DNA of 24,000 nt from Georgenia sp. M64. Its GTDB lineage: Bacteria > Actinomycetota > Actinomycetes > Actinomycetales > Actinomycetaceae. Within the stretch, counting starts at the first letter, position 1, and each line of letters begins with the position of its first letter. The stretch is from contig NZ_CP145809.1 in the NCBI RefSeq assembly GCF_038049925.1, forward strand, positions 2,180,599-2,204,598, given 5' to 3'. Positions 3,438-24,000 of this stretch are shown in pieces. Below the pieces are notes generated by a model that saw only the letters and a list, made by a program, of their open reading frames with translations, searched no databases and was not told where the DNA came from. The translations under genes and the position numbers were made by a program.

Positions 3438-4469
3438 ATGCAAGGGCGCACCAGGCTTACCGACGTCGCCGAGCAGGCCGGCGTCAGCACGGCGACGGTC
3501 TCTCGGGTCCTCAACGGCAAACCCGGCGTGGCGGGCGAGACCCGCCGGGCGGTCCTCGCCGCGCTCGACATGCTCGGCTACGAGCGGCCCGAGAAGCTGC
3601 GATCACGGTCGAACGGGCTCGTCGGTCTGGTGGTGCCCGAGCTGAGCAACCCCGTCTTCCCCGCGTTCGCGCAGTCGATCGAGACCATGCTCGCCACCAC
3701 GGGCTACACGCCGCTGCTGTGCACGCAGTCCCCCGGCGGCATCACGGAGGACCAGTACGTCGACATGCTCCTCGAGCACGAGGTCGACGGCATCATCTTC
3801 GTCTCGGGCCTGCACGCCGACACCCACGCCGACCCGGCCCGCTACCAGCGACTGCAGGAGCGTGGCGTCCCGATCGCCCTCATCAACGGCCACAACCCCG
3901 AGATCGACGCCCCGGCCTTCTCCACCGACGACCGCGGCAGCATGGACCTGGCGGTGCGCCACCTCGTCTCCCAGGGCCACCGCACCATCGGCCTGGCCAT
4001 CGGCCCGGACCGGTTCGTCCCGGCCCGCCGCAAGCGCGACGGCTTCGTCGAGGCCATGCGGAACTACCTCGACGTGTCCGACCCGGCGATCGTCAGCACC
4101 CTGTTCACCGTCGAGGGGGGCCTCAGCGCGGGCACATCGCTCATCGACCTCGGGTGCACCGCGATCATCTGCGGGTCCGACCTCATGGCGCTCGGCGTCG
4201 TGCGGGCCGCCCGTGCCCGGGGCCTGCGGGTGCCCGAGGACCTCTCCGTCATCGGGTACGACGACTCGGCGCTGATCCCGTTCACGGACCCGCCGCTGAC
4301 GACCATCCGTCAGCCGGTCGAGGCCATGTGCCAGGCCGCCGTCACCACGCTCGTCGCCGAGATCGGTGGTTCGAGGGTTCCTCGCACGGAACTGGTGTTC
4401 GTGCCCGAGCTCATCGTCCGCGGCTCGACCGCGGCCGCGCCGGGCAACGTCGTGGGGCTGGCGATCTAG
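3438..4469 (+). CDS. malR: LacI-family transcriptional repressor (maltose regulon type)
   Basis: ORF 3336..4469. N-terminal HTH (RLTDVAEQAGVSTATVSRVLNGKPGV) plus a periplasmic-binding-protein-like sugar-binding core. Divergent from malEFG. Start at ATG 3438; in-frame GTG 3432 is an alternative, 8 nt after AGGAG. Confidence 0.85.
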   Translation: MQGRTRLTDVAEQAGVSTATVSRVLNGKPGVAGETRRAVLAALDMLGYERPEKLRSRSNGLVGLVVPELSNPVFPAFAQSIETMLATTGYTPLLCTQSPGGITEDQYVDMLLEHEVDGIIFVSGLHADTHADPARYQRLQERGVPIALINGHNPEIDAPAFSTDDRGSMDLAVRHLVSQGHRTIGLAIGPDRFVPARRKRDGFVEAMRNYLDVSDPAIVSTLFTVEGGLSAGTSLIDLGCTAIICGSDLMALGVVRAARARGLRVPEDLSVIGYDDSALIPFTDPPLTTIRQPVEAMCQAAVTTLVAEIGGSRVPRTELVFVPELIVRGSTAAAPGNVVGLAI

Positions 4470-4590
4470 CCCGTCGACCGCGTTCCGGGCACCTTCCGCC
4501 ATCAGCCGAGGGGGCGTGCGGCCGGCCCGGCTGGCCTCCGCGCGCCGACGGCGTCAGGATGGTCGGTCGGCGACGGCGGGTCACGCCTCG

Positions 4591-4662
4591 CCCCAGCACC
4601 CCAGCACCCCAGCACCCCAGCACCCCAGCACCCCAGCACCCCAGCACCCCAGCACCCCAGCA
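4591..4662. repeat. Perfect 8-bp microsatellite (CCCCAGCA) x 9
   Basis: Counted directly: nine uninterrupted copies, 72 bp. The array ends 8 nt before the GGAG (4671-4674) that precedes the aglA ATG at 4679. The complement is (TGCTGGGG)9. Confidence 0.97.
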
Positions 4663-4678
4663 CCGACCCAGGAGATCG

Positions 4679-6466
4679 ATGTCCACCCTCACCCGTGCCG
4701 AGCTGACCGTCCACACCCCCACCGAGGGACGTGCCACCTGGTGGCGCGAGGCGGTCATCTACCAGGTCTACCCCCGCTCCTTCGCCGACGGTGACGGTGA
4801 CGGCATCGGCGACCTGCCCGGCATCACCGCACGGCTGGACCACCTGGCGGCGCTCGGCGTGGACGCCGTGTGGCTCTCGCCCTTCTACCGCTCCCCGCAG
4901 GCGGACGCCGGCTACGACGTCGCCGACTACCGCGACGTCGACCCGCTGTTCGGCACCCTCGCCGACGCCGACGCCCTCCTCGCCCGGGCGCACGACCTCG
5001 GCCTGCGCGTCATCGTCGACCTCGTGCCGAACCACACCTCGGACGAGCACGAGTGGTTCGCCGCGGCGCTCGCCGCCGGTCCCGGCAGCCCCGAACGGGC
5101 TCGCTACATCTTCCGCGAGGGCAACGGCGAGACCGGTGAGGAGCCCCCGAACAACTGGGAGTCCGTCTTCGGCGGCCCCGCGTGGACCCGGGTGCGCGAC
5201 CGCGCCGACGCCCCGGGCAGCGCCTGGGCCGAGGACGGGCAGTGGTACCTCCACCTGTTCGACTCCAAGCAGCCCGACCTGGACTGGGAGAACCCCGAGG
5301 TCCGGGCCGAGCTCGAGGACGTCCTGCGCTTCTGGCTCGACCGCGGCGTCGACGGCTTCCGCGTCGACGTCGCGCACGGCCTGGTCAAGGCCGCCGGCCT
5401 GCCCGACTGGGCGGGGCACGTGAGCATGGTCGAGGGCGCCGAGGACGCGGGTGACACCGATCCCGAGCCGCCCGCGGTCCGCTCCCCCGAGGGTCACCAC
5501 GCCCACCCGCCGATGTTCGACCAGGAGGGGGTGCACGAGATCTACCGCGACTGGCACCGGGTTCTCGCGGAGTACCCGGGCGACCGGGTGCTGGTGGCGG
5601 AGGCGTGGGTGGACCCCGTCGAGCGCCTCGCGCGGTACGTCCGCGCCGACGAGATGCACCAGGCCTTCAACTTCGCCTTCCTCGTCTCCCCCTGGCACGC
5701 CCCCGAGCTGCGCGACGTCATCGCCCGTTCCTACCGGGCCAACGACGCCGTCGGGGCGCCGACGACCTGGGTCCTGTCGAACCACGACGTCGTCCGGCAC
5801 GCCTCCCGGCTGGGCCTGGCCCGTACCGGCAAGGGCCCCAACGGCATCGGCGCCACGGACCCGCAGCCCGACGCCGAGCTCGGTCTTCGCCGGGCCCGCG
5901 CCGCCACGCTGCTCATGCTGGGGCTCCCGGGCTCGGCGTACCTCTACCAGGGCGAGGAGCTGGGGCTGCCCGAGCACACCGAGCTGCCGGACGAGACGCG
6001 TCAGGACCCGGCGTTCTTCCGCACCGGCGGGGCCGAGCGCGGCCGCGACGGGTGCCGGGTGCCGCTGCCCTGGGAGCAGGACGCGCCCGGGTTCGGCTTC
6101 TCCCCCACCGGCCGCACCTGGCTGCCGCAGCCTTCCGAGTGGGCCGACCTGGCTGCCGACACCCAGAGCGGCCGGCCCGGCTCGACCCTCGAGCTGTACC
6201 GCGAGACGCTGCGCCTGCGCGCGGAGCTCGGGCTGGGGCTGGGGTCGATGTCGTGGAGCGCCGGGCACGCGACGAGCCCCGACGTCGTCGCGTTCGTCAC
6301 CACGGGCGCGGCCGAGGTCCTCGTCCTGACGAACCTCGGCGACACGGACGTCGCCCTGCCGGCCGGGTGGAGCGTGCTCGTGGCCAGCGGTCCGCTCGGC
6401 GAGGGTGCCGGCGGCGAGGCGACCACCGTGCCGGCCGACACCACGGTGTGGGCGCGGCGCAGCTGA
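4679..6466 (+). CDS. aglA: GH13 alpha-glucosidase / oligo-1,6-glucosidase
   Basis: The real start is inside ORF 3719..6466: GGAG-N4-ATG at 4679, giving MSTLTRAEL...WWREAVIYQVYPRSFADGDGDGIGDL. GH13 conserved regions are present (DLVPNHTS, GFRVDVAHG, EAWV, SNHDVVRH). Confidence 0.9.
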   Translation: MSTLTRAELTVHTPTEGRATWWREAVIYQVYPRSFADGDGDGIGDLPGITARLDHLAALGVDAVWLSPFYRSPQADAGYDVADYRDVDPLFGTLADADALLARAHDLGLRVIVDLVPNHTSDEHEWFAAALAAGPGSPERARYIFREGNGETGEEPPNNWESVFGGPAWTRVRDRADAPGSAWAEDGQWYLHLFDSKQPDLDWENPEVRAELEDVLRFWLDRGVDGFRVDVAHGLVKAAGLPDWAGHVSMVEGAEDAGDTDPEPPAVRSPEGHHAHPPMFDQEGVHEIYRDWHRVLAEYPGDRVLVAEAWVDPVERLARYVRADEMHQAFNFAFLVSPWHAPELRDVIARSYRANDAVGAPTTWVLSNHDVVRHASRLGLARTGKGPNGIGATDPQPDAELGLRRARAATLLMLGLPGSAYLYQGEELGLPEHTELPDETRQDPAFFRTGGAERGRDGCRVPLPWEQDAPGFGFSPTGRTWLPQPSEWADLAADTQSGRPGSTLELYRETLRLRAELGLGLGSMSWSAGHATSPDVVAFVTTGAAEVLVLTNLGDTDVALPAGWSVLVASGPLGEGAGGEATTVPADTTVWARRS

Positions 6467-6482
6467 CCGAAGGCTGACGTGG

Positions 6483-15699: not shown

Positions 15700-15814
15700 G
15701 TCGTTCGCGCCGCGGGCCCTCGTCGTTGGCGCGGGACGCCCTCGTCGTTTCGCGCGGCGGGCCGTCGTCGTACGGGTGGGTGGCCCTTCGTCGTCGTGCG
15801 GGCGATGGCCCTAG
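15692..15814. repeat. Degenerate ~23-bp tandem array (5 copies + partial) downstream of uppS
   Basis: Copies start at 15692, 15715, 15738, 15760 and 15782. All share the core GGCCC(T)(T)CGTCGT. A sixth partial copy, GGCCCT (15807-), runs into the uppS stop (CTA 15811-15813). The first copy overlaps the 3' arm of the terminator hairpin. Confidence 0.7.
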
Positions 15815-16599
15815 ATGCCCTCGGGCCGGTCCACCGCCCCGCCGTAGCGGCGGTCGCGACGGGCGTAGGTCTCCACGGCACGCCACAGGGTGCGGCGGTC
15901 GACGTCGGGCCAGGCGTCGTCGATGAAGACCATCTCGGCGTACGCGGACTGCCACAGCAGGAAGTTCGACGTGCGCTGCTCCCCGCCCGTGCGCAGGAAC
16001 ATGTCGACGTCGGGCAGGTCCGGCTCGTCCAGGTGCCGGGCGACGGTGCGCTCGGTGACCCGCTCCGGGTCCAGCCGTCCGGCGGCGACCTCCCGGGCGA
16101 TGCTGCGGGCGGCGTCGGCGATCTCGGCCCGGCCCCCGTAGTTGACGCACATCGTCAGCGTGCACACCGTGTTGTCCCGGGTCTGCTCCTCGGCCCGCTC
16201 GAGCTCGGAGACCACCGAGCGCCACAGCCGCGGGCGTCGGCCGGCCCAGCGCACCCGCACGCCCCAGGCGTCCATCTGGTCCCGGCGGCGGTGGAGGACG
16301 TCGCGGTTGAAGCCCATGAGGAAGCGGACCTCGTCCGGTGAGCGCTTCCAGTTCTCGGTGGAGAACGCGTACGCCGAGACGTGCGTGACCCCGATCTCGA
16401 TCGCCCCGGCGACCACCTCGAGCAGGGCAGCCTCCCCCGCCTTGTGACCCTCGACGCGGGGCAGGCCGCGGGCGTTGGCCCACCGGCCGTTGCCGTCCAT
16501 GACGACGGCGACGTGCCGCGGCACGAACCGCGGGTCGATCGCGGGGGCGCGCTCGCCCGAGGGGTGCGGCGGCGGCGGGACGGGCGCGGCGGCGCTCAC
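15811..16599 (-). CDS. uppS: Isoprenyl transferase / undecaprenyl-diphosphate synthase
   Basis: In the frame of ORF 15811..16884. GTG 16599 overlaps the recO TGA (GTGA). Canonical [24 protein letters not shown] and [20 protein letters not shown] motifs. Upstream ORF codons are R-rich junk. Confidence 0.9.
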
Positions 16600-17327
16600 G
16601 CGCGCTCGACCATCCGCAGGGAGCGCAGCTGGCGCTCGAGGTGCCACTGGAGGTAGGACGCCACAAGTCCCGAGGCCTCCTTGCGCTCGCGCGGCTCGGA
16701 CGCGTCGGCCTGGGCCCAGTCGCCGGAGAGCAGCGCGCCGAGGAGCGACATCGTCTCCCGGGCGGGCGAGGCCGAGCCGGGTGGACGGCAGGAGTCGCAC
16801 ACCGCGCCGCCGGCCGCGGCGTTGAACCCGCGGTGCGGACCGTCGGTGCCGCACCGGACGCAGTCGTAGCAGCTGGGCGCCCACCCCGCCACGGCGAGGG
16901 CGCGCAGGAGGTAGGAGTCCAGCACGAGGGAGGCCGCGTGCCTGCGCGTGGCCAGGGAGTGCAGGGCACCGACGAGGAGGAGGTACTGCTGCGGGAACGG
17001 CTCGCGCTCGATCTCGGTGAGCCGGGCCGCGGTCTCCGCCATGGCGTGGGCGGTCGTGTACAGCCCGTAGTCCTCACCGAGGTTGCGCCCGTAGGGGGCG
17101 ATGGTCTCGACCTGGGTGATCGTGTCCAGGCTCCGGCCCAGGTGGAGCTGGATGTCGACGACGCCGAACGGCTCGAGCCGGGCACCGAACTTCGACGAGG
17201 TGCGCCGCACCCCCTTGGCGACGGCGCGGACCTGGCCGTGCTCACGGGTCAGCAGCGTGATGATGCGGTCGGCCTCACCGAGCTTGTGGGTCCGCAGCAC
17301 CACGGCCTCGTCCCGGTACAGCTTCAC
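16596..17327 (-). CDS. recO: DNA repair protein RecO
   Basis: ORF 16596..17366. Start trimmed to GTG 17327 ([31 protein letters not shown]), which matches the usual RecO N-terminus. A Cys-rich Zn motif CYDCVRCG...CDSC is present. Confidence 0.9.
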
Positions 17328-17350
17328 CCGTTCATTGTCCCCCACCGGCC

Positions 17351-17388
17351 GCCGCCCCGGCCCCATGGCGCGCGGGGCACGGGGCGGC
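17351..17388 (-). terminator. Hairpin downstream of leuA
   Basis: GCCGCCCCGGCCCC (17351-17364) pairs with GGGGC-a-CGGGGCGGC (17374-17388), leaving one bulged A. It lies between the leuA stop (17403) and the recO start (17327). Confidence 0.5.
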
Positions 17389-17402: not shown

Positions 17403-19160
17403 TCAGCGCCCGGCGCGGTTGACCGCCGAGACGATGGCCTTGAAGGACGCGGTCATGGTCGAGGGGTCGATGCCCACGCCCCACAGCACCTGTCCACCCA
17501 CCTCGCACTCGACGTACGAGGCGGCGGTGGCGTCCCCGCCCTCGGACAGCGCGTGCTCGGCGTAGTCGAGCACGTGGACCTCCACGCCCACCTCGCCGAG
17601 GGCGTTGACGAACGCGTCGATCGGGCCGTTACCGGTGGCGGCGAGGACCTTCTCCTCCCCGCCGTCGACGAGGGTCACGGTGAGGACCGCGTCGGTGCCC
17701 TCCCCCGCCGTCGTGAGGGTGGTGCCCTTGAGAGCGAAGCGGCCCCACGGCTCGAGGCCCATCGCGGCGGTGTGCGGCAGGTACTCGTCGGCGAAGATCG
17801 ACCAGAGCTGCTCGGCGTCGATCTCCCCGCCGTAGGCGTCGGTGTGCTTCTGGACGATGCCGGACAGCTCGATCTGCAGGCGGCGGGGCAGGTCCAGGTG
17901 CCGGGTCGAGGAGAGCAGGTAGGCCACCCCGCCCTTGCCGGACTGGGAGTTCACCCGCACGACCGCCTCGTAGCTGCGGCCGACGTCCTTGGGGTCGATC
18001 GGGAGGTACGGCAGCTCCCAGACGACGGCCTCCTCGGCGCCGCCGGCCGCCGCGACCTTCTCCGCGCGGGCCGTGAAGCCCTTCTTGATGGCGTCCTGGT
18101 GCGAGCCGGAGAAGGAGGTGTAGACGAGGTCGCCGCCGTAGGGGTGGCGGGGGTGGACGTCCATCTGCGTGCAGGCCTCGACGGTGCGGCGGATCCCGTC
18201 GATGTCGGAGAAGTCGATCATCGGGTCGATGCCCTGGCTGAAGAGGTTGAGGCCGAGCGTGATGAGGTCGACGTTGCCGGTGCGCTCGCCCTGGCCGAAG
18301 AGGCAGCCCTCGACCCGGTCGGCGCCCGCGAGCAGCCCCAGCTCGGCCGCCGCGACACCCGTGCCGCGGTCGTTGTGCGGGTGCAGCGACAGCGCGACGT
18401 GCTCGCGCCGGGTGAGGTTGCGGCTCATCCACTCGATCTGGTCGGCGTAGACGTTGGGGGTGGCCCGCTCGACCGTGGCCGGGAGGTTGAGGATGATCTC
18501 CCGGCCGGGCTCGGGCTGCCAGACGTCCATGACCGCCTCGCAGACGGCGAGGGCGAAGTCCAGCTCGGTGTCGACGAAGATCTCCGGGGAGTACTGGTAG
18601 CCGAAGACGGTCTCGTCGCCGAGGACCTTCTCGGCGTAGGCCAGGACCTCGCGCGTGCCGGCGACGGCGAGCTCCTGGGTGGCCTCGCGGTCGTTGTGGA
18701 AGACGATGTCACGGAAGACCGGGGCGGTGGCGTTGTACAGGTGCACACTCGCCCGGGGGAAGCCGACGAGGGAGTCGATGGTCCGGTGGATGAGCTCGGG
18801 CCGCGCCTGGGTCAGGACCGAGACGGTGACGTCGTCGGGCACCGCGTCGTCCTCGACGAGCGAGCGCACGAAGTCGAAGTCGGTCTGCGAGGCGGCCGGG
18901 AAGCCGATCTCGATCTCCTTGTAGCCCATCGTCACGAGCAGGTCGAACATCCGGCGCTTGCGCTCGGCGTTCATCGGCTCGATGAGGGACTGGTTGCCGT
19001 CACGCAGGTCGGTGGAGAGCCAGCGGGGGGCACGGGTGGTGCGGCGGGTCGGCCACTGCCGGTCGGGCAGGTCGACCGGGTTGACCTCCACGAAGGGCCG
19101 GTACTTCGACACCGGCATGGCGGAGGGCTGCTGGGCGCTGATGCGGTCTGCGGTCTTCAT
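17403..19160 (-). CDS. leuA: 2-isopropylmalate synthase (long actinobacterial LeuA type)
   Basis: ORF 17403..19160. Sequence MPVSKYRPF...WLSTDLRDGNQSLIEPM, with HPHNDRGTGVAAAELG, plus the C-terminal regulatory domain. Confidence 0.95.
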   Translation of the reverse strand: MKTADRISAQQPSAMPVSKYRPFVEVNPVDLPDRQWPTRRTTRAPRWLSTDLRDGNQSLIEPMNAERKRRMFDLLVTMGYKEIEIGFPAASQTDFDFVRSLVEDDAVPDDVTVSVLTQARPELIHRTIDSLVGFPRASVHLYNATAPVFRDIVFHNDREATQELAVAGTREVLAYAEKVLGDETVFGYQYSPEIFVDTELDFALAVCEAVMDVWQPEPGREIILNLPATVERATPNVYADQIEWMSRNLTRREHVALSLHPHNDRGTGVAAAELGLLAGADRVEGCLFGQGERTGNVDLITLGLNLFSQGIDPMIDFSDIDGIRRTVEACTQMDVHPRHPYGGDLVYTSFSGSHQDAIKKGFTARAEKVAAAGGAEEAVVWELPYLPIDPKDVGRSYEAVVRVNSQSGKGGVAYLLSSTRHLDLPRRLQIELSGIVQKHTDAYGGEIDAEQLWSIFADEYLPHTAAMGLEPWGRFALKGTTLTTAGEGTDAVLTVTLVDGGEEKVLAATGNGPIDAFVNALGEVGVEVHVLDYAEHALSEGGDATAASYVECEVGGQVLWGVGIDPSTMTASFKAIVSAVNRAGR

Positions 19161-19165
19161 CGGTT

Positions 19166-19316
19166 CCTCGTCGCTCGTGCGTGATGGCCGGGCACGACGA
19201 CCGCCGCGACGAGGGGCCGGCCGTCAGTTGGCCTCGTCGCGGCAGAGAAGGAGCAGCTGGTGCTGCACGGACCTGCGCACATCACGAGGCTACCGCCCGC
19301 GGTGGGCACGAGTCAC
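19166..19316 (-). promoter_or_regulatory. leuA leader: putative promoter, Leu leader peptide and alternative hairpins (attenuator)
   Basis: On the minus strand: -35 GTGACT (19316-19311), an 18-nt spacer, -10 TAGCCT (19292-19287), then GTG 6 nt later. Arm A GCCGCGACGAGG (19243-19232), arm B CCTCGTCGCGGC (19214-19203) and arm C GCGACGAGG (19174-19166) follow. Arm C overlaps the leuA SD. B is complementary to both A and C. Confidence 0.6.
19224..19280 (-). CDS. Putative leucine leader peptide (18 codons: M/V-RRSVQHQLLLLCRDEAN)
   Basis: Hand translation of the reverse complement of 19224-19280. Four consecutive Leu codons, CTG CTC CTT CTC (19256-19245), come immediately before hairpin arm A. The stop, TGA 19226-19224, lies in the A/B loop. 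An in-frame GTG at 19268 is an alternative start. Confidence 0.55.
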   Translation of the reverse strand: MRRSVQHQLLLLCRDEAN

Positions 19317-19340
19317 CTTCCGGACGGGGTCGTCTCAGCA

Positions 19341-19458
19341 TTCAGGTGGTCGCCGGCGTTCAGGTGGTCGCGGTCAGCTGGGCGCGCCCTGTGGTCGGCC
19401 GCGCTCAGGTGGCGGCCGGCGTTCCAGGCGGTCGCCGGCGTTCAGGTGGTCACCGGTC
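19341..19458. repeat. 18-19-bp repeat family TTCAGGTGGTCGCCGGCG (2 + 3 copies)
   Basis: Copies at 19341-19358, 19359-19376, 19404-19421, 19422-19440 and 19441-19458. They are degenerate at 1-6 positions (A2 is the most diverged). A 27-bp unique segment splits the two clusters. Confidence 0.75.
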
Positions 19459-19539
19459 AGGCGGCGGAGTCGCGGTGACTACGGAGGAACCGGGGTGGGT
19501 CAGCCCGTCCGGCGCACCGGACTCACCCCGCTTCATCCT

Positions 19540-19623
19540 GAGTCGCCGAGGTGGGGGCGTGATTCGCCGAGGTGGGGGCGTGCTTCGCCGGGGAGGAGGC
19601 CTGACACGCCGAGGAGGGGCCTT
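19540..19623. repeat. 21-bp tandem repeat x4 (GAnTCGCCGAGGTGGGGGCGT)
   Basis: Copies at 19540-19560 and 19561-19581 match 20/21. Two more diverged copies are at 19582-19602 and 19603-19623. Confidence 0.8.
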
Positions 19624-19637
19624 GTCAGGGTCGGGAC

Positions 19638-19687
19638 GTGTCAGGGCACTCGGCTCATCGTGGTGTCAGGGCACCCGGCTCATCGTG
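19638..19687. repeat. 25-bp tandem duplication that includes the stop codon of the 140-aa gene
   Basis: GTGTCAGGGCACTCGGCTCATCGTG (19638-19662) and GTGTCAGGGCACCCGGCTCATCGTG (19663-19687) differ by 1 mismatch. The functional stop (TCA 19666-19668 on plus) lies in copy 2. An inverted copy of the TGTCAGG core, CCTGACACG, is at 19600-19608. Confidence 0.9.
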
Positions 19688-20088
19688 ATCGGTGGCGGGA
19701 TCTCCCCCGCCCAGCCCACCGGCGCGAGGGGGATCCGCCCGTCGCGGGCACGGGCGTCGAACTCCTCGCTCAGCCGCACGAGCTCACGCTGGCGCGTGTA
19801 CCCCGTGGAGCCCGCCCGGAACTGCCGCACGAGGAGCCAGCCGGCGAGCGGGAACGCGACGGCGAGGACGAGCCAGCCCACCGCGAGGCCGGACATGATC
19901 GAGGCGAGCCCCATGAGCACCACACCGGCGACCAGGCCGGCGCCGATGGTGCGCAGGGAGAAGGCGCGCGAGACCCCGTCACCCGTCACCGCGTGGAACT
20001 CCGCCCAGGCGCGTGCGCGGAACTCGGCGACGGAGCCGGCGTCCTCGGGAGCGCGTCCCGGCACACCACCGCGCCGCGCCCCGCTCAT
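19666..20088 (-). CDS. Small two-TM membrane protein of unknown function (candidate immunity/accessory protein of the T7SS cassette)
   Basis: These are the last 140 codons of ORF 19666..21504. ATG 20088 is preceded by GGAGGAGG and overlaps the stop of the upstream gene (ATGA). Two hydrophobic helices (TIGAGLVAGVVLMGLASIMSGL and AVGWLVLAVAFPLAGWLLV). The rest of the 612-aa ORF is an out-of-frame artefact. Confidence 0.65.
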   Translation of the reverse strand: MSGARRGGVPGRAPEDAGSVAEFRARAWAEFHAVTGDGVSRAFSLRTIGAGLVAGVVLMGLASIMSGLAVGWLVLAVAFPLAGWLLVRQFRAGSTGYTRQRELVRLSEEFDARARDGRIPLAPVGWAGEIPPPITMSRVP

Positions 20089-20888
20089 CGGGCCTCCTCC
20101 CCCTGCAGGACGTGCACGCTCTGGGCCACCATCGTCGCCAGGCGCGCGCACGACTCCAGCGAGCCGCGGTGGAACGTCGAGGCCGTGACGACGACCAGCG
20201 CTCCGGCCGCCGGGAAGGGCAGGTGGATCTCGGCGGAGCCGTGCTCGAGCGGCTCCGTCCCCGGCGGCACGGTCATCCCGGCGTGCTCCTGAGCGGCCCA
20301 GTCCAGGGCGTCGAGCCGCACGACGGCGGCTCCGGCGGTCACCGGGGTGGTCACGGTCTCGACGTGCGCGCCCGGGTGCCGGGCACGAAGGGCCCGGGCG
20401 AGCATGACGTGCTGCGCGACGGGGGCGTCGTCCGGCAGCGGGGGCAGGTCGTGCACCTGCACCGAGAGCTGGACGAACACACCGCGCACACCGTCGAGGA
20501 CGTCGGAGGTTCCTGCACCGCCGGCACCATCGGCGACGTCGGAGGTCTGCGCGCCGCCGGCACCGCTGTCGATTCCGGGGGTGCCTGCTCCGTCGGTGGC
20601 GTCGGACGTCCCTGCGGCGCCGGCACCGTCGGCGTCCGCCGGGTACACCGCGCTCACCAGCCCGGCCCATATCACCGGCCGGCGCAGCAGGCCCCGGCGC
20701 AGCACGAGGAGAGCTCCGGTGACCGCGTCGACGTCGGCGCCCGGCGCGTCCCGCCCGACCCGCTCGGCGATCTCCGCCCGCGCCTCGTCCTCGCTCAGGT
20801 GCAGCCGGAGGTCGAGCATGTCGCGCGGCACGAGTGCCTCGACGGCGCGCGTCACGGGTGCCGTCGTGCCGGTGGTGACCGCGCTCAT
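20085..20888 (-). CDS. Hypothetical cytoplasmic protein with internal acidic Gly/Ala repeat (T7SS-cassette gene 3)
   Basis: In the frame of ORF 20085..20999. ATG 20888 is preceded by GAGGAG and overlaps the upstream stop (ATGA). 267 aa with no TM helix. It carries a DGAG(A/G)AGTSD(A/V) repeat block at aa 84-132. I recognise no family. Confidence 0.65.
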   Translation of the reverse strand: MSAVTTGTTAPVTRAVEALVPRDMLDLRLHLSEDEARAEIAERVGRDAPGADVDAVTGALLVLRRGLLRRPVIWAGLVSAVYPADADGAGAAGTSDATDGAGTPGIDSGAGGAQTSDVADGAGGAGTSDVLDGVRGVFVQLSVQVHDLPPLPDDAPVAQHVMLARALRARHPGAHVETVTTPVTAGAAVVRLDALDWAAQEHAGMTVPPGTEPLEHGSAEIHLPFPAAGALVVVTASTFHRGSLESCARLATMVAQSVHVLQGEEAR

Positions 20889-22066
20889 CGGGCCAGCTCC
20901 TCGGACGTGAGGTAGGCGGTGCCCGCCGGGAGGTCCCACGGGTTGTCGACGTCGTGGGCGGTGACCTGCTGGACGAGCGGAACGCCCGTGATGACCCACT
21001 GCGCCTGGTTGGACTTGATCTTGACGGCCTGCCAGAGCAGCTCGTCGGCGTGCATCTCCGTGGTGGTGAAGAGGCTCGGCGGGAGCTCGACCGGCTGCCC
21101 GTCGACCCCGCGCACGACGGTGGGCGCGGTGCCCACCCCGGTGGTGCGCCGGATGTGGTTGATCCGGCTGATCGCCTTGCCGGCGATCTTCCCCACGCCG
21201 AGGCCGGCCAGCCCCCAGGCGACGGCGGACCAGTCGCCGTCAGCCGCGACGGCCAGCGCGGTGTCGGTGGCGAGACCGGCGGCGCCGACCACCGAGGCGC
21301 CCAGCGCGAGGAACGGCGCCGCGGGCGGGAAGACGAACAGCGAGACGCCGGCCGCGACGGCGAGCCCGGCGGAGGCCCAGCCGCAGAAGGCGGAGATGTC
21401 GGACAGGCTCGGCGCGATGGACCGGATCCAGTCGCCCACCTCGGAGGAGGAGACCCACCCGCCGAAGTCGCGGACCCAGTTGCCGATCGTGGCGGACCAG
21501 CCACCGCCGAAGGACATGTCCCCGGCGGCGTCGAGTCGGGCCGCGTAGGACTTCGAGGCGTCGTTGAACTCGTCGTGGAGGCGGTCGGCGGCGGCGCGCA
21601 GGGCGATCACGCGGTCGGCGGCGGCGTTCGCCGCGGCGAGGGCCTCCTCCCGCTCGCCGGGCTCACCCGCACCCGGCCCCATCTGCAGGTAGGGGACCGC
21701 GGCGGAGACGGCGGCGCGCTCGGCCCCCAGGGCGACACCGAGGTCGGCGTCGATGGTGGCCGCGCGAGCCTGGAAGCCCGCGAGGTCCTCGGCCCAGCCG
21801 GACAGGACGTCCCCGGCCTGGCCGAAGGCGGTCGCGATGGTGCTCAGGCGTGGCGGGAACTCGACCATCGCCTCCTGGTAGGCCCGCGCGGTCTGGCCGG
21901 TCCACAGGTCGGTGCGCGCCCCCTGGAGGAACGCGGACATCTCGGCGACGTCGTCGCCGAGGTCACGGAAGAGGCGCGCGAGGTCCCGGGTGCCCTCGAC
22001 GTCGCCCGGGGTGGGGTCCCAGCCGAGGTTCTCCAGCACCCGTGAGGCGGTGAGGTACCCGCTCAT
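20885..22066 (-). CDS. WXG-hairpin N-terminal domain protein with glycine-zipper hydrophobic region and small C-terminal domain (candidate T7SS-exported effector)
   Basis: ORF 20885..22066 with GGGAGAGG SD; its ATG overlaps the upstream stop (ATGA). N-terminus LGWDPTPGDV...DLWTGQTARAYQEAMVEF has W55-T-G57 between two long helices. A Gly/Trp-rich segment follows (GGGWSATIGNWVRDFGGWVSSSEVGDW). The hydrophobic block at aa ~226-297 contains GLAGLGVGKIAGKA. A 94-aa C-terminal domain completes the protein. Confidence 0.75.
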   Translation of the reverse strand: MSGYLTASRVLENLGWDPTPGDVEGTRDLARLFRDLGDDVAEMSAFLQGARTDLWTGQTARAYQEAMVEFPPRLSTIATAFGQAGDVLSGWAEDLAGFQARAATIDADLGVALGAERAAVSAAVPYLQMGPGAGEPGEREEALAAANAAADRVIALRAAADRLHDEFNDASKSYAARLDAAGDMSFGGGWSATIGNWVRDFGGWVSSSEVGDWIRSIAPSLSDISAFCGWASAGLAVAAGVSLFVFPPAAPFLALGASVVGAAGLATDTALAVAADGDWSAVAWGLAGLGVGKIAGKAISRINHIRRTTGVGTAPTVVRGVDGQPVELPPSLFTTTEMHADELLWQAVKIKSNQAQWVITGVPLVQQVTAHDVDNPWDLPAGTAYLTSEELAR

Positions 22067-22365
22067 CCGTGCCTCTCCCGGGTGACGAGCTGCTCGGCGA
22101 GACGCAGGTCGAGGGTCTCGAAGGCCTCCAGGACCTGCCCGAGGAAGGTGCCGGCCTGCCGGCCCTGCTCGCGCACCTCGTCGAGGCTGTCGTCCCAGCT
22201 GTCGGCGAACTCCACGACGTCGTCGTGGAGGATCCGCGCCCCGACCGCGAGCCCGGACATGCCGCGCAGCGTGTCGTGCACGGACGCCATGCGCTCGTCC
22301 AGGCGCGTGAGGTCGTCCCGGACGTCCTCGACGTAGGCCCGGTCGACGATCAGCTCGTCAGACAT
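22063..22365 (-). CDS. Small (100 aa) all-helical protein, WXG100/EspC-size (candidate effector partner)
   Basis: ORF 22063..22365 with ATG preceded by GGGGGAGAG. Acidic. Two predicted long helices are separated by GMSGLAVGARIL. It ends ...AFETLDLRLAEQLVTRERHG. It is translationally coupled to the 393-aa gene. Confidence 0.7.
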   Translation of the reverse strand: MSDELIVDRAYVEDVRDDLTRLDERMASVHDTLRGMSGLAVGARILHDDVVEFADSWDDSLDEVREQGRQAGTFLGQVLEAFETLDLRLAEQLVTRERHG

Positions 22366-22379
22366 CTCTCCCCCTCGTG

Positions 22380-22407
22380 CGCGGCGCGGCCCGGAGGCCG
22401 CGCCGCG
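22380..22407 (-). terminator. 12-bp GC hairpin between the WXG100 gene and the four-gene cassette (partial terminator/attenuator candidate)
   Basis: CGCGGCGCGGCC (22380-22391) / CGGA / GGCCGCGCCGCG (22396-22407). It sits 53 nt after the WXG100 stop and 15 nt before the next ATG. Confidence 0.55.
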
Positions 22408-22459
22408 ATGTGCGTGCTGGCTGCCGACCGAGGGCGATCCCCCGCCGGCTCCCCACCGG

Positions 22460-22750
22460 TCAGATGCCGGCGGCCAGCTGCGAGTCGGTGTCGGCCAGCG
22501 CCTGGGCGGCGTTGGTGAGGTACTGCGACAGGTCCTGCAGGCCCTCGATGGTGGTCTGCGCGCCCTGGGTGAACTGCTGGTAGGACTCGTTGAACCGCAC
22601 CGAGGCCTGGTCCGTGACGAACCCGGACTCCACCAGGCCCTGGATCTGGGCCTGCAGGCGCTGCAGGTCGGCGACGATCTGCTCCTTCGCGGTGACGAGG
22701 TTGTTCGCCTCGCGCTGCATCTCGTCGTAGGAGACGTTGATGTTGGCCAT
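22460..22750 (-). CDS. WXG100-family (ESAT-6/EsxA-like) type VII secretion substrate
   Basis: In the frame of ORF 22460..22825. ATG 22750 is preceded by AAGGGGGAAG. 96 aa, helix-turn-helix. The layout is YukE/EsxA-like, including the C-terminal ...LTNAAQALADTDSQLAAGI. Adjacent to eccC. There is no Trp anywhere; the turn reads E-S-G-F. Confidence 0.85.
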   Translation of the reverse strand: MANINVSYDEMQREANNLVTAKEQIVADLQRLQAQIQGLVESGFVTDQASVRFNESYQQFTQGAQTTIEGLQDLSQYLTNAAQALADTDSQLAAGI

Positions 22751-22841
22751 GTGCTTCCCCCTTCTCGTGGTCCGGCCGCCTTCCGGCCGGATCCGCTGCC
22801 CTATTCCTACCGGTATGGGGGGCACCGTGTCGCGCTCCCCC

Positions 22842-22887
22842 GATGGGGAGAACTCCCCATCACCACCCTGGCTGCGACGACGTCGTC
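22842..22887. promoter_or_regulatory. Two palindromes upstream of the WXG100 gene
   Basis: GATGGGGAG-aa-CTCCCCATC at 22842-22861 and the perfect 12-mer GACGACGTCGTC at 22876-22887. They lie in the 195-bp gap between the eccC stop and the WXG100 start. A 5'-UTR hairpin, TCCGGCCG-ccttc-CGGCCGGA, is at 22771-22791. Confidence 0.35.
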
Positions 22888-22945
22888 ACGCCCGCGTCCC
22901 GCTCCCGCTGCCGGTCACCGACGCGGCTGAGCTCGACCTGCGCCC

Positions 22946-24000
22946 TCACTGCACCAGCGGCAGCTGGACGCGTCGCACCTTGCCACGGTCCACGGCCAGC
23001 CCCCGCCCGGGCGGGAACTCGGCCCGCTGCACCCGGGGGAAGCTCGTGCGGAAGATCGTGTCGCCCTCGATGCTCTCGGGCTGCAGGGCGATCCCGCGCC
23101 GGCCGTTGCGGACCTCGGCGAGCAGCGGCCACGACGACCCCCACGCCGACGTCTCGGCCTCGGCGACGACGAGGTGGTCGTTGCGCCGGGCCGCCTGGAT
23201 CAGCTCGGTGAGCGGCCGCTCGGCCGGACCGGAGAGGAAGTCCGCGAGGCTCTCCACGACGAGGACGATCCCCGTCTCCCCGTCCCCGGGCGGGCGCCCG
23301 AACAGCGGCAGGACCTCCTTGGCGACCTCGGCGACGTCGGCCGCGCCGGTCGCCGAGCGCTCCCAGCCGGGCAGCCCGGCGAGCTCCGAGCGCCGGGCGG
23401 CCAGATGGACGAACCGGGCGTCGGGTCGGGCGGCGCGCACCGACGCCGTGAGCCAGCGCAGGGCGTTGGTGCGCCCGGACTCCGGGGGGCCGGCGACGAG
23501 GAACGTCCCGGCCGGGGCGAAGCCGACCGGCTCGAGCGTGTCGTCCGCGACACCGAGGACGGGCCACCCGTCGACGCTCGCCGGCATCTCGCGGGCGGGC
23601 ACGAGCGCCGGCAGGCGCCGGACCGGGGGCGCCTCGGGCGTGCCGCCGCGGCGCAGCGTCCCGGCGAGCGACTCGACGGCGCGGACCTGCTCGGCGAGGT
23701 TCGGGCTCCCGCCGAGGACGGCGATCTGCATCTCCAGCCCCTCGGGCGTGATGGCGCGCCCCGGCGGGGAGGCGGGGTCGAGGACGTCCTTCGGCGCACC
23801 GAGCTGGAGGTAGGCCTGCTCGTCGGCCTGGCGCATGACCACCCGCCGGGGCAGCGAGCCGGTCACCGAGATGGGGATTGCGCCGGGGCGGTCGGCCGTC
23901 ACCGCGACGTGGACCCCGGCGGAGCGGCCGTCGACGAGGATCTGGAGGAACAGCTGGTACCAGGGGGCCCGCCCGGGAACGGTCTCCCAGTCGGCCCGGA
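22946..24000 (-). CDS. eccC: Type VII secretion FtsK/SpoIIIE-family ATPase EccC (C-terminal ~350 aa; gene continues beyond window end)
   Basis: The track ORF 22946..23902 starts at an internal GTG. The same frame stays open to nt 24000 (…RADWETVPGRAPWYQLFLQILVDGRSAGVHVAV-TADRPGA…). This is the last P-loop domain (FLVAGPPESGRTNAL, IVLVVESLADF). The WXG100 gene lies immediately downstream. Confidence 0.9.
   Translation of the reverse strand, partial: RADWETVPGRAPWYQLFLQILVDGRSAGVHVAVTADRPGAIPISVTGSLPRRVVMRQADEQAYLQLGAPKDVLDPASPPGRAITPEGLEMQIAVLGGSPNLAEQVRAVESLAGTLRRGGTPEAPPVRRLPALVPAREMPASVDGWPVLGVADDTLEPVGFAPAGTFLVAGPPESGRTNALRWLTASVRAARPDARFVHLAARRSELAGLPGWERSATGAADVAEVAKEVLPLFGRPPGDGETGIVLVVESLADFLSGPAERPLTELIQAARRNDHLVVAEAETSAWGSSWPLLAEVRNGRRGIALQPESIEGDTIFRTSFPRVQRAEFPPGRGLAVDRGKVRRVQLPLVQ

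Follow-up and report, generated by a model that had tools for sequence, protein, structure and literature searches.

The secretion systems that appear, by analogy, to be closest in function to the locus described here are the Esr-linked Esx systems, with their pairs of AesB-like and WXG100-like proteins, and the systems that deliver membrane toxins of the TspA/TelE type. In a preprint by Wang et al. (bioRxiv, Sept 2026; PMC13622651), the Esx system of Schaalia odontolytica is reported to limit Saccharibacteria epibionts and to export two interdependent proteins, AesA and AesB, the latter consisting of an N-terminal helical bundle of ~180 amino acids (aa), then a Gly-rich part for which AlphaFold gives no model, and finally a short C-terminal region that is conserved. 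According to the same preprint, each of the Schaalia candidate substrates encoded outside the Esx cluster adjoins a small WXG100-like hairpin gene, the analogous helical pairs are secreted effectors that are dispensable for the export of EsxA/EsxB, and EsrG, an FHA output protein that in some cases is fused to EccC, connects the secretion of particular substrates with a threat-sensing pathway of MoxR, vWA, transglutaminase and kinase (PMC13622651). The recurrence of FHA proteins, e.g. TseJ, in new T7SS variants (T7SS, type VII secretion system), as well as small WXG100-related genes beside candidate substrates, had also been noted by Garrett, Higginson and Palmer in 2024 (PMC11217815). Here we describe a stretch of 24,000 nucleotides (nt) from Georgenia sp. 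M64, hereafter called the window, in which the minus strand carries eccC and esxA followed by a four-gene cassette encoding proteins of 100, 393, 267 and 140 aa. We favour, with somewhat better than even confidence, the interpretation that these four genes form the substrate module of an Esr-linked Esx (type VII) system.

In Firmicutes, TspA-TsaI of Staphylococcus aureus and TelE-TipE are LXG or LXG-like membrane-active toxins accompanied by membrane immunity proteins. In the mycobacterial ESX-1 system, the operons espA-espC-espD and espE-espF-espG-espH encode a WXG protein of ~390-400 aa and a ~100-aa hairpin protein, together with cytosolic chaperone-like proteins; no hydrophobic membrane block is known in EspA or EspE. 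TelE of Streptococcus gallolyticus is described as a glycine-zipper toxin of a T7SSb (PMC10434224).

The Esr-type locus and its four-gene cassette

The window contains the 3' end of an eccC/essC-type FtsK-SpoIIIE ATPase gene (350 codons, 22946-24000), a fragment whose match to the NCBIfam model EccCb (E = 1.2e-22) reaches 80 bits, well under the family cut-off of 346.55, and the esxA gene (22460-22750), which encodes a canonical WXG100 protein of 96 aa (Pfam WXG100, 9.1e-17; TIGR03930, 5.5e-12). The exact EsxA sequence of the window retrieved contigs that are 94-98% identical to the window and extend upstream of it (loci L090 and L091), and the order in these strains is MoxR, DUF58, TgpA, FHA::EccC, EsxA, 100, 393, 261/267, 140 and leuA. 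The full-length EccC of L090 and L091 has 1465 aa and an N-terminal FHA domain, the upstream MoxR-like AAA+ protein matches PDB entry 2r44 at 2e-30, and the genes of the MoxR-like protein, the DUF58 protein and the TgpA-type transglutaminase are coupled to eccC by 4-nt overlaps (L090 1-8549, L091 1-8445). A transglutaminase gene lies directly upstream of eccC also in an Actinomycetaceae metagenome-assembled genome (MAG; L006) and in G. daeguensis (L007). No genes for EccB, EccD, EccE or MycP were found in the ~8.5 kb upstream of esxA on L090 and L091. Judged by its predicted gene content, the locus of the window matches the Esr-linked Esx type. It shares with the AesA/AesB locus of S. odontolytica the MoxR gene, a vWA-type gene (DUF58 here), the transglutaminase gene, the FHA domain at the EccC N-terminus and EsxA, and with Esr-linked Esx systems the link of secretion to FHA/threonine-phosphorylation signalling (PMC13622651).

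A preliminary description of the window had listed the minus-strand order eccC, WXG100 gene, 12-bp GC hairpin (22380-22407), and open reading frames (ORFs) of 100, 393, 267 and 140 aa, and all of its coordinates hold. The four ORFs lie at 22063-22365 (100 aa), 20885-22066 (393 aa), 20085-20888 (267 aa) and 19666-20088 (140 aa). The three ATGA overlaps that join the four ORFs are present at 22066-22063, 20888-20885 and 20088-20085, and the Shine-Dalgarno sequence proposed for each ORF could be seen as a GGAG-rich or purine-rich stretch 4-13 nt ahead of every cassette start. The obligate co-translation of a complex, with which the ATGA coupling had been considered to fit, is not shown by this coupling, as 4-nt start/stop overlaps occur at seven junctions of the L090 gene table, including recO/uppS and MoxR/DUF58/TgpA/eccC, housekeeping pairs among them; since such overlaps are routine in this locus, three consecutive ATGA overlaps are the mark of an operon and nothing special. 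The four ORFs are real genes, every one with orthologues and under purifying selection. In the comparison with a strain whose LeuA is 99% identical, the ratio of nonsynonymous to synonymous polymorphism (pN/pS) was 0.04 for the 393-aa gene, 0.16 for the 100-aa gene, 0.10 for the 267-aa gene and 0.32 for the 140-aa gene, the value for leuA being 0.04.

The four families travel together. All of them are present in the window, in G. satyanarayanai (L001), G. daeguensis (L007), the Actinomycetaceae MAG (L006), two metagenome contigs (L002 and L086), the close relatives of the window (L085 and L090-L093) and a further locus, L088. In 40 of the 86 sequences, an FtsK ATPase of the EssC-like kind, ~1500 aa long and FHA-like at its N-terminus, is encoded no more than 10 kb away, often cut by the end of the locus. 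The usual gene order is small, large, two-helix and 267-like, the last two being swapped in the lineage of the window alone. The slot between esxA and leuA holds the same module in G. satyanarayanai, G. daeguensis and related MAGs, and in L088 the four-gene module (3515-6481) lies among purine biosynthesis genes on a 14.3-kb contig with no Esx gene. The two-helix membrane gene of L088 was not called by the source annotation and is seen as an ORF in 5175-5759. A parallel arrangement, encoding a hairpin protein, a T7SS_signal protein, a ~289-aa protein and a ~220-aa protein, was found in 39 Streptomyces-type modules, and the Streptomyces-type loci often encode several paralogous T7SS_signal proteins, some of them of ~1500 aa. 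On the evidence of these gene neighbourhoods, the module is conserved as a unit across Actinobacteria, from Micrococcales to Streptomyces. The literature searched contained neither a description of this four-gene module nor an experiment on it.

The cassette lies in a variable island (19270-22451, minus strand) between esxA and leuA. Nucleotide homology to G. daeguensis ends just past esxA, at 22452, and returns at 19269, 109 nt upstream of leuA; in blastn against L007 the identity is 85% as far as 22452 and 88.7% from 19269 on, with two weak patches in the island between them. Identities to the G. daeguensis proteins inside the island are 39% (100 aa), 40% (393 aa), 41% (140 aa) and 36% (267 aa), whereas outside it they are 90% for LeuA, 93% for EsxA and 76% for the C-terminus of EccC. 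No short-range positive selection was seen on the cassette genes (pN/pS 0.04-0.32), and with values this low the variability looks like that of different types of cassette kept at one fixed slot, and less like steady fast evolution. The island can be likened to the variable modules that are found downstream of essC in Firmicutes. The G. daeguensis island additionally contains a 293-aa gene, a second esxA and a gene for a 695-aa FHA protein, none of which is present in the window. The two esxA copies of L007 (6612-6902 and 7217-7507) each encode 96 aa with identical Pfam scores, and each region is ~85% nucleotide-identical to that of the window, which has a single esxA.

The cassette had also been regarded as an accessory insertion, set apart from the leuA block by a repeat-rich spacer. 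The spacer is indeed there, but the same module fills the same slot across Georgenia and the MAGs, so that a recent insertion beside leuA is not what is observed. As far as can be judged from these comparisons, the cassette is an old, exchangeable and hypervariable part of the Esx locus.

The candidate substrate pair

Three regions can be distinguished in the 393-aa protein. Residues 1-185 (21512-22066) form a predicted WXG100/T7SS_signal helical targeting domain with a W55-T-G57 turn followed by a coiled coil, residues 186-300 (21167-21511) form a hydrophobic block rich in Gly, Ala and Trp with two to three predicted membrane helices, and residues 301-393 (20885-21166) form a small C-terminal domain that is limited to the Georgenia-type group (alignment A8). 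The T7SS_signal model PF21725 matches 13 of 14 diverse family members (best 5.9e-11) and WXG100 matches eight of the 14, while the family profile matches the solved EsxA structures 2vs0 (4.6e-6) and 3zbh (4.9e-5) at positions 19-95. The W55 and G57 of the W-x-G turn are invariant in alignments A1 and A4. The AlphaFold2 (AF2) model shows helices at 23-53 and 58-129, with a block-mean predicted local distance difference test score (pLDDT) of 73-95 over residues 81-170. Foldseek superposed the N-terminal part on EsxA (3zbh) with a target-normalised template modelling (TM) score of 0.81 and a root-mean-square deviation of 1.5 Å over 85 columns, at an E value that is not significant. According to these profile and structural matches, the 393-aa protein is a member of the WXG100/T7SS_signal superfamily by virtue of its N-terminal domain.

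Other matches of this protein were weaker. Taken alone, it gave below-threshold Pfam matches to PF21725, PPE (E = 0.017) and WXG100; its N-terminal part resembles PPE4/PPE15 with target-normalised TM scores of 0.5-0.6 (E about 1), and Foldseek places its long helical bundle near BAR-domain proteins with E above 0.2, which is generic for such bundles. A PE/PPE/EspG-like trio was considered and dropped, as its support consisted of the weak PPE match and the generic likeness to PPE4/PPE15, with no EspG signal. LXG (PF04740) has no match in the 393-aa protein and, among the proteins of the window, gave a weak match in EsxA alone.

In the hydrophobic block, Kyte-Doolittle segments cover residues 226-267 and a third candidate helix lies at 279-296. 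A hydrophobic segment of at least 1.6 was present in all 123 superfamily members examined, and the family motif of the block is A-x-D-G-D-W...G-L-G-x-G-K, with P248, W279, G290 and G292 invariant. The C-terminal domain (last 95 residues) carries the motifs PSLFT, K-x-x-QA and PWDLP...AY, and no toxin domain or known family was found in it by searches of Pfam and the PDB.

Word-indexed protein searches gave few relatives, probably because of Ala/Gly-rich composition, and a genome pattern scan and an exhaustive HMMER search, the latter for the 267-aa family, were more informative. The pattern scan, with one genome per species, found 314 relatives. Among these, full-length relatives (36-40% identity) are limited to Georgenia and Actinomycetaceae MAGs, and many Streptomyces, Catenulispora, Thermocrispum and further actinobacteria have relatives that share only residues ~13-300 of the 393-aa protein. 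The homologues of the Georgenia group align over 99% of their length, C-terminal domain included, which argues against the swapping of C-terminal domains that is seen in polymorphic toxins. In L020, L030, L040 and other Streptomyces loci, several divergent paralogues within 20 kb share an N-terminal 'DP-x-PGD' helical domain; these are membrane proteins of ~400-500 aa and proteins of ~1500 aa, and they form a large multigene family. Extra copies of the small hairpin family stand at secondary positions in some of these Streptomyces loci.

In most of the 84 actinobacterial loci (Georgenia, Streptomyces and Catenulispora), the next gene upstream of the T7SS_signal gene is one of the 100-aa family. 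When 27 diverse members of the family were searched, weak matches to WXG100 were obtained for 10 of them (best 5.1e-5) and to T7SS_ESX_EspC for eight (best 4.9e-5), and a few matched EspB_PE, DUF6317 or DUF6507. The conserved residues are G42, F53, W57 and D86. BLASTP of the window's EsxA against the 100-aa orthologue of G. satyanarayanai gave 4e-4 in a small local database, and a profile search of the PDB produced matches to designed helical bundles and further generic helical proteins and to nothing else. We read the 100-aa protein as a divergent hairpin of the WXG100 clan or EspC-like type, i.e. the usual kind of co-secretion partner. Contrary to the preliminary description, in which none of the four proteins could be assigned to a family, two of the four can now be placed, the 393-aa protein as WXG100/T7SS_signal and the 100-aa protein as WXG100/EspC-like; among the profiles that it had named, T7SS_signal was found below threshold in the 393-aa protein and WXG100 and EspC at the family level, whereas LXG was not found in the 393-aa protein.

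The pairing of the two proteins recalls in size the espA and espE operons of ESX-1, and the weak match of the 100-aa family to the EspC model points in the same direction. In contrast to ESX-1, the small gene comes first in Georgenia, no sequence match to EspA, EspD or EspG was found, and the window's own 100-aa protein does not match the EspC model. The likeness to AesB, as this protein is described, lies in the N-terminal helical bundle, the unmodelled Gly-rich region, the short conserved C-terminal region and the adjacent gene of a small helical partner (PMC13622651). The differences are that the helix turn is FXG in AesB and WXG (WTG) in the 393-aa protein, that the Gly-rich block of the latter is hydrophobic enough for predicted membrane helices rather than intrinsically disordered, that the GYNVP/GYVNP motif required for AesB function is missing from every 393-aa family member examined, and that the passages seen contain no counterparts of the 267-aa and 140-aa genes (PMC13622651). 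No family member contained the GYNVP/GYVNP motif, nor did any ORF scanned in the 84 loci or in the window. Membership of the AesB clade is not supported, given the lack of GYNVP and the WXG instead of FXG turn, in a comparison made with the described features of AesB.

The companion proteins and other features of the locus

The 267-aa protein is 100% identical to the annotated hypothetical protein V5H98_09995. When 1.84 billion cluster representatives were searched exhaustively with HMMER, only nine true relatives came up, five of which carry a C-terminal FHA domain, and FHA is also present on the 267-aa orthologues of G. satyanarayanai (L001), G. daeguensis (L007) and a Georgenia sp. MAG (L008). 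The domain is absent from the 267-aa protein of the window, and tblastn found no FHA remnant anywhere in the window, nor decayed genes in the spacer; the M64 lineage may have lost the FHA domain of this family. The FHA domain on most relatives points to a cytoplasmic phosphothreonine-linked adaptor or chaperone, and not an immunity protein. The protein has no strongly hydrophobic segment and is predicted to be soluble.

By hhalign, the 267-aa family is similar to a ~220-aa soluble family of Streptomyces and Catenulispora (probability 86.6%, E = 4.4e-6, 113 columns), which is encoded two genes downstream of the T7SS_signal gene. The joint alignment of the two families is collinear from an N-terminal 'VP-x-GF-x-x-LP' to a C-terminal 'V-x-VPFP-x-G...V-x-T'. 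No Pfam match was obtained for any member of either family at E up to 10, in searches in which the HMMER filters drop most weak matches, and no PDB sequence match was found by profile search. The 'VP-x-GF-x-x-LP' motif suggested an Eag/PsbP-like chaperone fold, a possibility that was set aside. A low-complexity insert of the 267-aa protein, encoded at 20491-20653, is built of repeat units of ~27-36 nt coding for GG-x-x-x-SDV-x-D. The length of the insert varies between near-identical strains, giving proteins of 267, 261, 255 or 234 aa, and the sequence of the unit in L090 differs as well.

TseJ (T7SSe, Bacillota; DUF6382 with a C-terminal FHA domain; PMC11217815) is comparable in that the FHA-bearing relatives of the 267-aa protein are likewise encoded in a T7SS cluster with an FHA-carrying ATPase. 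It differs in that it comes from Bacillota, that the 267-aa family has no DUF6382 and that the protein of the window has no FHA. DUF6382 had been considered for the 267-aa family and its Streptomyces relatives and was rejected, as no match was obtained at any threshold. The Pfam and PDB sequence searches likewise gave no sign of an N-terminal pseudophosphatase domain like that of EsrG1.

The 140-aa protein has two adjacent hydrophobic helices at residues ~42-90, according to hydropathy, and a conserved C-terminal tail, DARA-x-x-G-x-IP...GW. Its orthologues in L001, L002 and L007 are 34-43% identical, and the family was detected in the Georgenia-type group only, where a two-helix membrane protein is a constant part of the module. 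Relative to the strain with 99% LeuA identity, the gene shows five conservative changes within the helices. By analogy with the membrane immunity proteins of known toxins, this two-helix protein could be an immunity protein. Both the 267-aa and the 140-aa families are unannotated, and no description of either was found in the literature searched.

The GC hairpin at 22380-22407 (minus strand; 12 bp, UCCG loop, no U tail) was predicted in the minimum free energy and centroid folds of 22366-22459, and it falls just within the variable island. It may be an attenuator or processing site tuning the ratio of esxA to the cassette. No canonical terminator or sigma-70 promoter was found in 19100-23000. 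The repeat-rich spacer upstream of leuA (19341-19687) was delimited by Tandem Repeats Finder and repeat finding and consists of three tandem arrays: 18 nt x6.9 at 19341-19456, 21 nt x3.9 at 19539-19619, and 25 nt x2 at 19638-19687. The last of these copies the final 22 nt of the 140-aa gene including its stop, so that the gene's 3' end is repeated behind its real stop. No Rfam family matched anywhere in the window, spacer arrays included, and the PADLOC models of anti-phage defence gave no match for the four cassette proteins or for the FHA proteins nearby. In this lineage, according to the gene tables of L085 and L090, leuA and recO have between them (window 15763-17375) a gene of 344-409 aa for which no Pfam family is recorded.

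A further, compact type of cluster was observed in Streptomyces sp. NPDC020917 (L012 1-13802) and other Streptomyces loci. Besides three unannotated genes of ~250-294 aa, it contains a hairpin gene and the genes of an FHA-like FtsK/EssC ATPase (~1510 aa) and of a T7SS_signal membrane protein. In L012 the cluster adjoins Tad-type pilus genes (T2SSE, T2SSF), and no EccB/EccD/MycP-type match was found among ten neighbouring ORFs. This cluster looks like a minimal Esx-like system, of which no description was found in the literature searched.

Interpretation and alternative explanations

From the observed domain assignments, linkage, behaviour as a unit and variability, we infer the following course of export and membrane insertion and the following two accessory roles. 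The hairpin of the 100-aa protein would pack on the N-terminal helices of the 393-aa protein to give a composite helical-bundle signal, EccC would recognise this signal through its C-terminal ATPase domain, and the two proteins would be exported together. The working part of the 393-aa protein would be its hydrophobic block rich in Gly and Ala, which would insert into the membrane of a target cell or of the producer; with three helices, the small C-terminal domain would end up outside. The 267-aa protein would serve this aggregation-prone substrate in the cytoplasm as its dedicated chaperone or adaptor, and the FHA domain of the 267-aa family in sister species would couple export to the Esr threonine-phosphorylation signal. 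The 140-aa protein would be a membrane partner that most likely protects the producer from insertion of the 393-aa protein or, alternatively, serves as a docking site.

Several observations weigh against the substrate-module interpretation. The match of the 393-aa protein to T7SS_signal PF21725 (E = 1e-4, 22.7 bits) is below the gathering score of 27, its AF2 model is unresolved past residue 185, with pLDDT below 50 in the C-terminal half, and no YxxxD/E export motif was seen in it by eye. A three-helix protein is moreover an unusual cargo for a T7SS. The 100-aa protein of the window itself has no Pfam or NCBIfam match, and the AF2 model of the 267-aa protein is poor (pLDDT 45), and its fold matches are noise. 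As the M64 form has neither the FHA domain nor the FHA membrane proteins of the sister species, phospho-regulation through the 267-aa protein is impossible in this strain. The roles proposed for the 267-aa and 140-aa proteins are deduced from localisation, domain fusion and gene context.

The preliminary description had drawn a parallel to T7SS toxin operons, and the cassette could accordingly be viewed as a classical interbacterial toxin-immunity cassette, with the 393-aa protein as a depolarising or pore-forming toxin of the TspA/TelE type, the 140-aa protein as its immunity protein, the 100-aa protein as a Lap-like partner and the 267-aa protein as a second immunity protein or chaperone. 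Part of the parallel stands: the genes form a unit at a T7SS locus, in which a WXG-like partner and a WXG/T7SS_signal-headed substrate are encoded together with a two-helix protein. The resemblance to TspA-TsaI and TelE-TipE extends to the helical T7SS targeting N-terminus, the small WXG-like partner, the glycine-rich C-terminal part, the small membrane protein encoded adjacently and the variable region beside the core secretion genes. The GxxxG-like spacing in the Gly/Ala-rich hydrophobic block, the few substitutions of the adjacent membrane protein, which fall in its helices, and the position of a hypervariable island amid conserved flanks, as in the Firmicutes modules downstream of essC, are in keeping with such a view. 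Unlike in those systems, however, the 393-aa protein has no LXG match in Pfam, and the cassette encodes an extra soluble protein of an FHA family without a counterpart there. Searches of Pfam and the PDB found no toxin domain, the Georgenia-group homologues are collinear over 99% without C-terminal swapping, and a single cassette is present, with no arrays of orphan immunity genes in the loci examined. The Streptomyces family is a conserved set of several paralogues and not a polymorphic tip, most members of the 267-aa family are FHA fusions, unlike immunity proteins, and the pN/pS of 0.04 of the 393-aa gene equals that of leuA. With these points taken together, we consider a classical toxin-immunity cassette unlikely.

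The absence of EccB/EccD/MycP-type core genes next to the ATPase in the Georgenia, MAG and Streptomyces loci (Pfam) might suggest that the cassette encodes parts of the machine or of its control instead of cargo, the 393-aa protein being a membrane subunit that docks on EccC by means of a WXG-like domain, and the 267-aa (FHA) and 140-aa proteins being Esr-type adaptors that gate secretion. The conservation of the module from Micrococcales to Streptomyces, and the occurrence of FHA domains in EccC, in membrane proteins encoded nearby and in the majority of the 267-aa family, would agree with this. We nevertheless hold it to be improbable, somewhat more so than a toxin-immunity cassette. The cassette, at 36-41% identity, diverges far faster than EccC (76%) or EsxA (93%), the last two genes can be swapped and FHA is dispensable in some lineages, L088 keeps the module among purine genes with no Esx gene on the 14-kb contig, and Streptomyces loci carry several paralogous copies; in addition, the analogous pairs of Schaalia are secreted effectors that EsxA/EsxB export does not require (PMC13622651). 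The position of L088 away from any Esx gene, the source name 'phage shock protein A' of one homologue (P0008) and the Foldseek placement of the long helical bundle near BAR-domain proteins could also be explained by an operon unrelated to type VII secretion, e.g. one for envelope stress or membrane remodelling, which lies beside esxA by chance. We hold this to be very improbable, since invariance of the WXG motif goes together with profile matches to solved EsxA and T7SS_signal, the gene of the hairpin partner is consistently present, an EssC-like ATPase recurs within 10 kb, and the BAR matches are not significant (E above 0.2) and generic for long bundles.

A bolder reading may also be considered, namely that the cassette represents a new class of Esx effectors, in which a T7SS exports or inserts a multi-helix membrane protein under the licence of a dedicated phosphothreonine-reading adaptor for defence against epibionts or competitors, with alternative cassettes being exchanged at the esxA-leuA slot in a previously unrecognised pan-Actinobacteria module. 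We put this forward as a speculative possibility that is more doubtful than otherwise. The general logic is already established and the type of locus is framed by the recent preprint; the cargo and its two companions are uncharacterised and widespread.

Until very recently, almost no cargo was known for the Esx systems of Actinobacteria outside the mycobacteria, and the cassette provides a concrete and compact candidate. The family of the substrate pair spans Georgenia to Streptomyces, and of the two unannotated companion families one ties the cargo to FHA/threonine-phosphorylation signalling. If the genes were merely a toxin-immunity pair, they would add another member to a well-known class. 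If the substrate-module interpretation is true, it would become possible to address how a type VII system handles the passage of aggregation-prone membrane proteins, how substrates are chosen by a threat-sensing Esr pathway, and why the esxA-leuA region is swapped among otherwise near-identical genomes.

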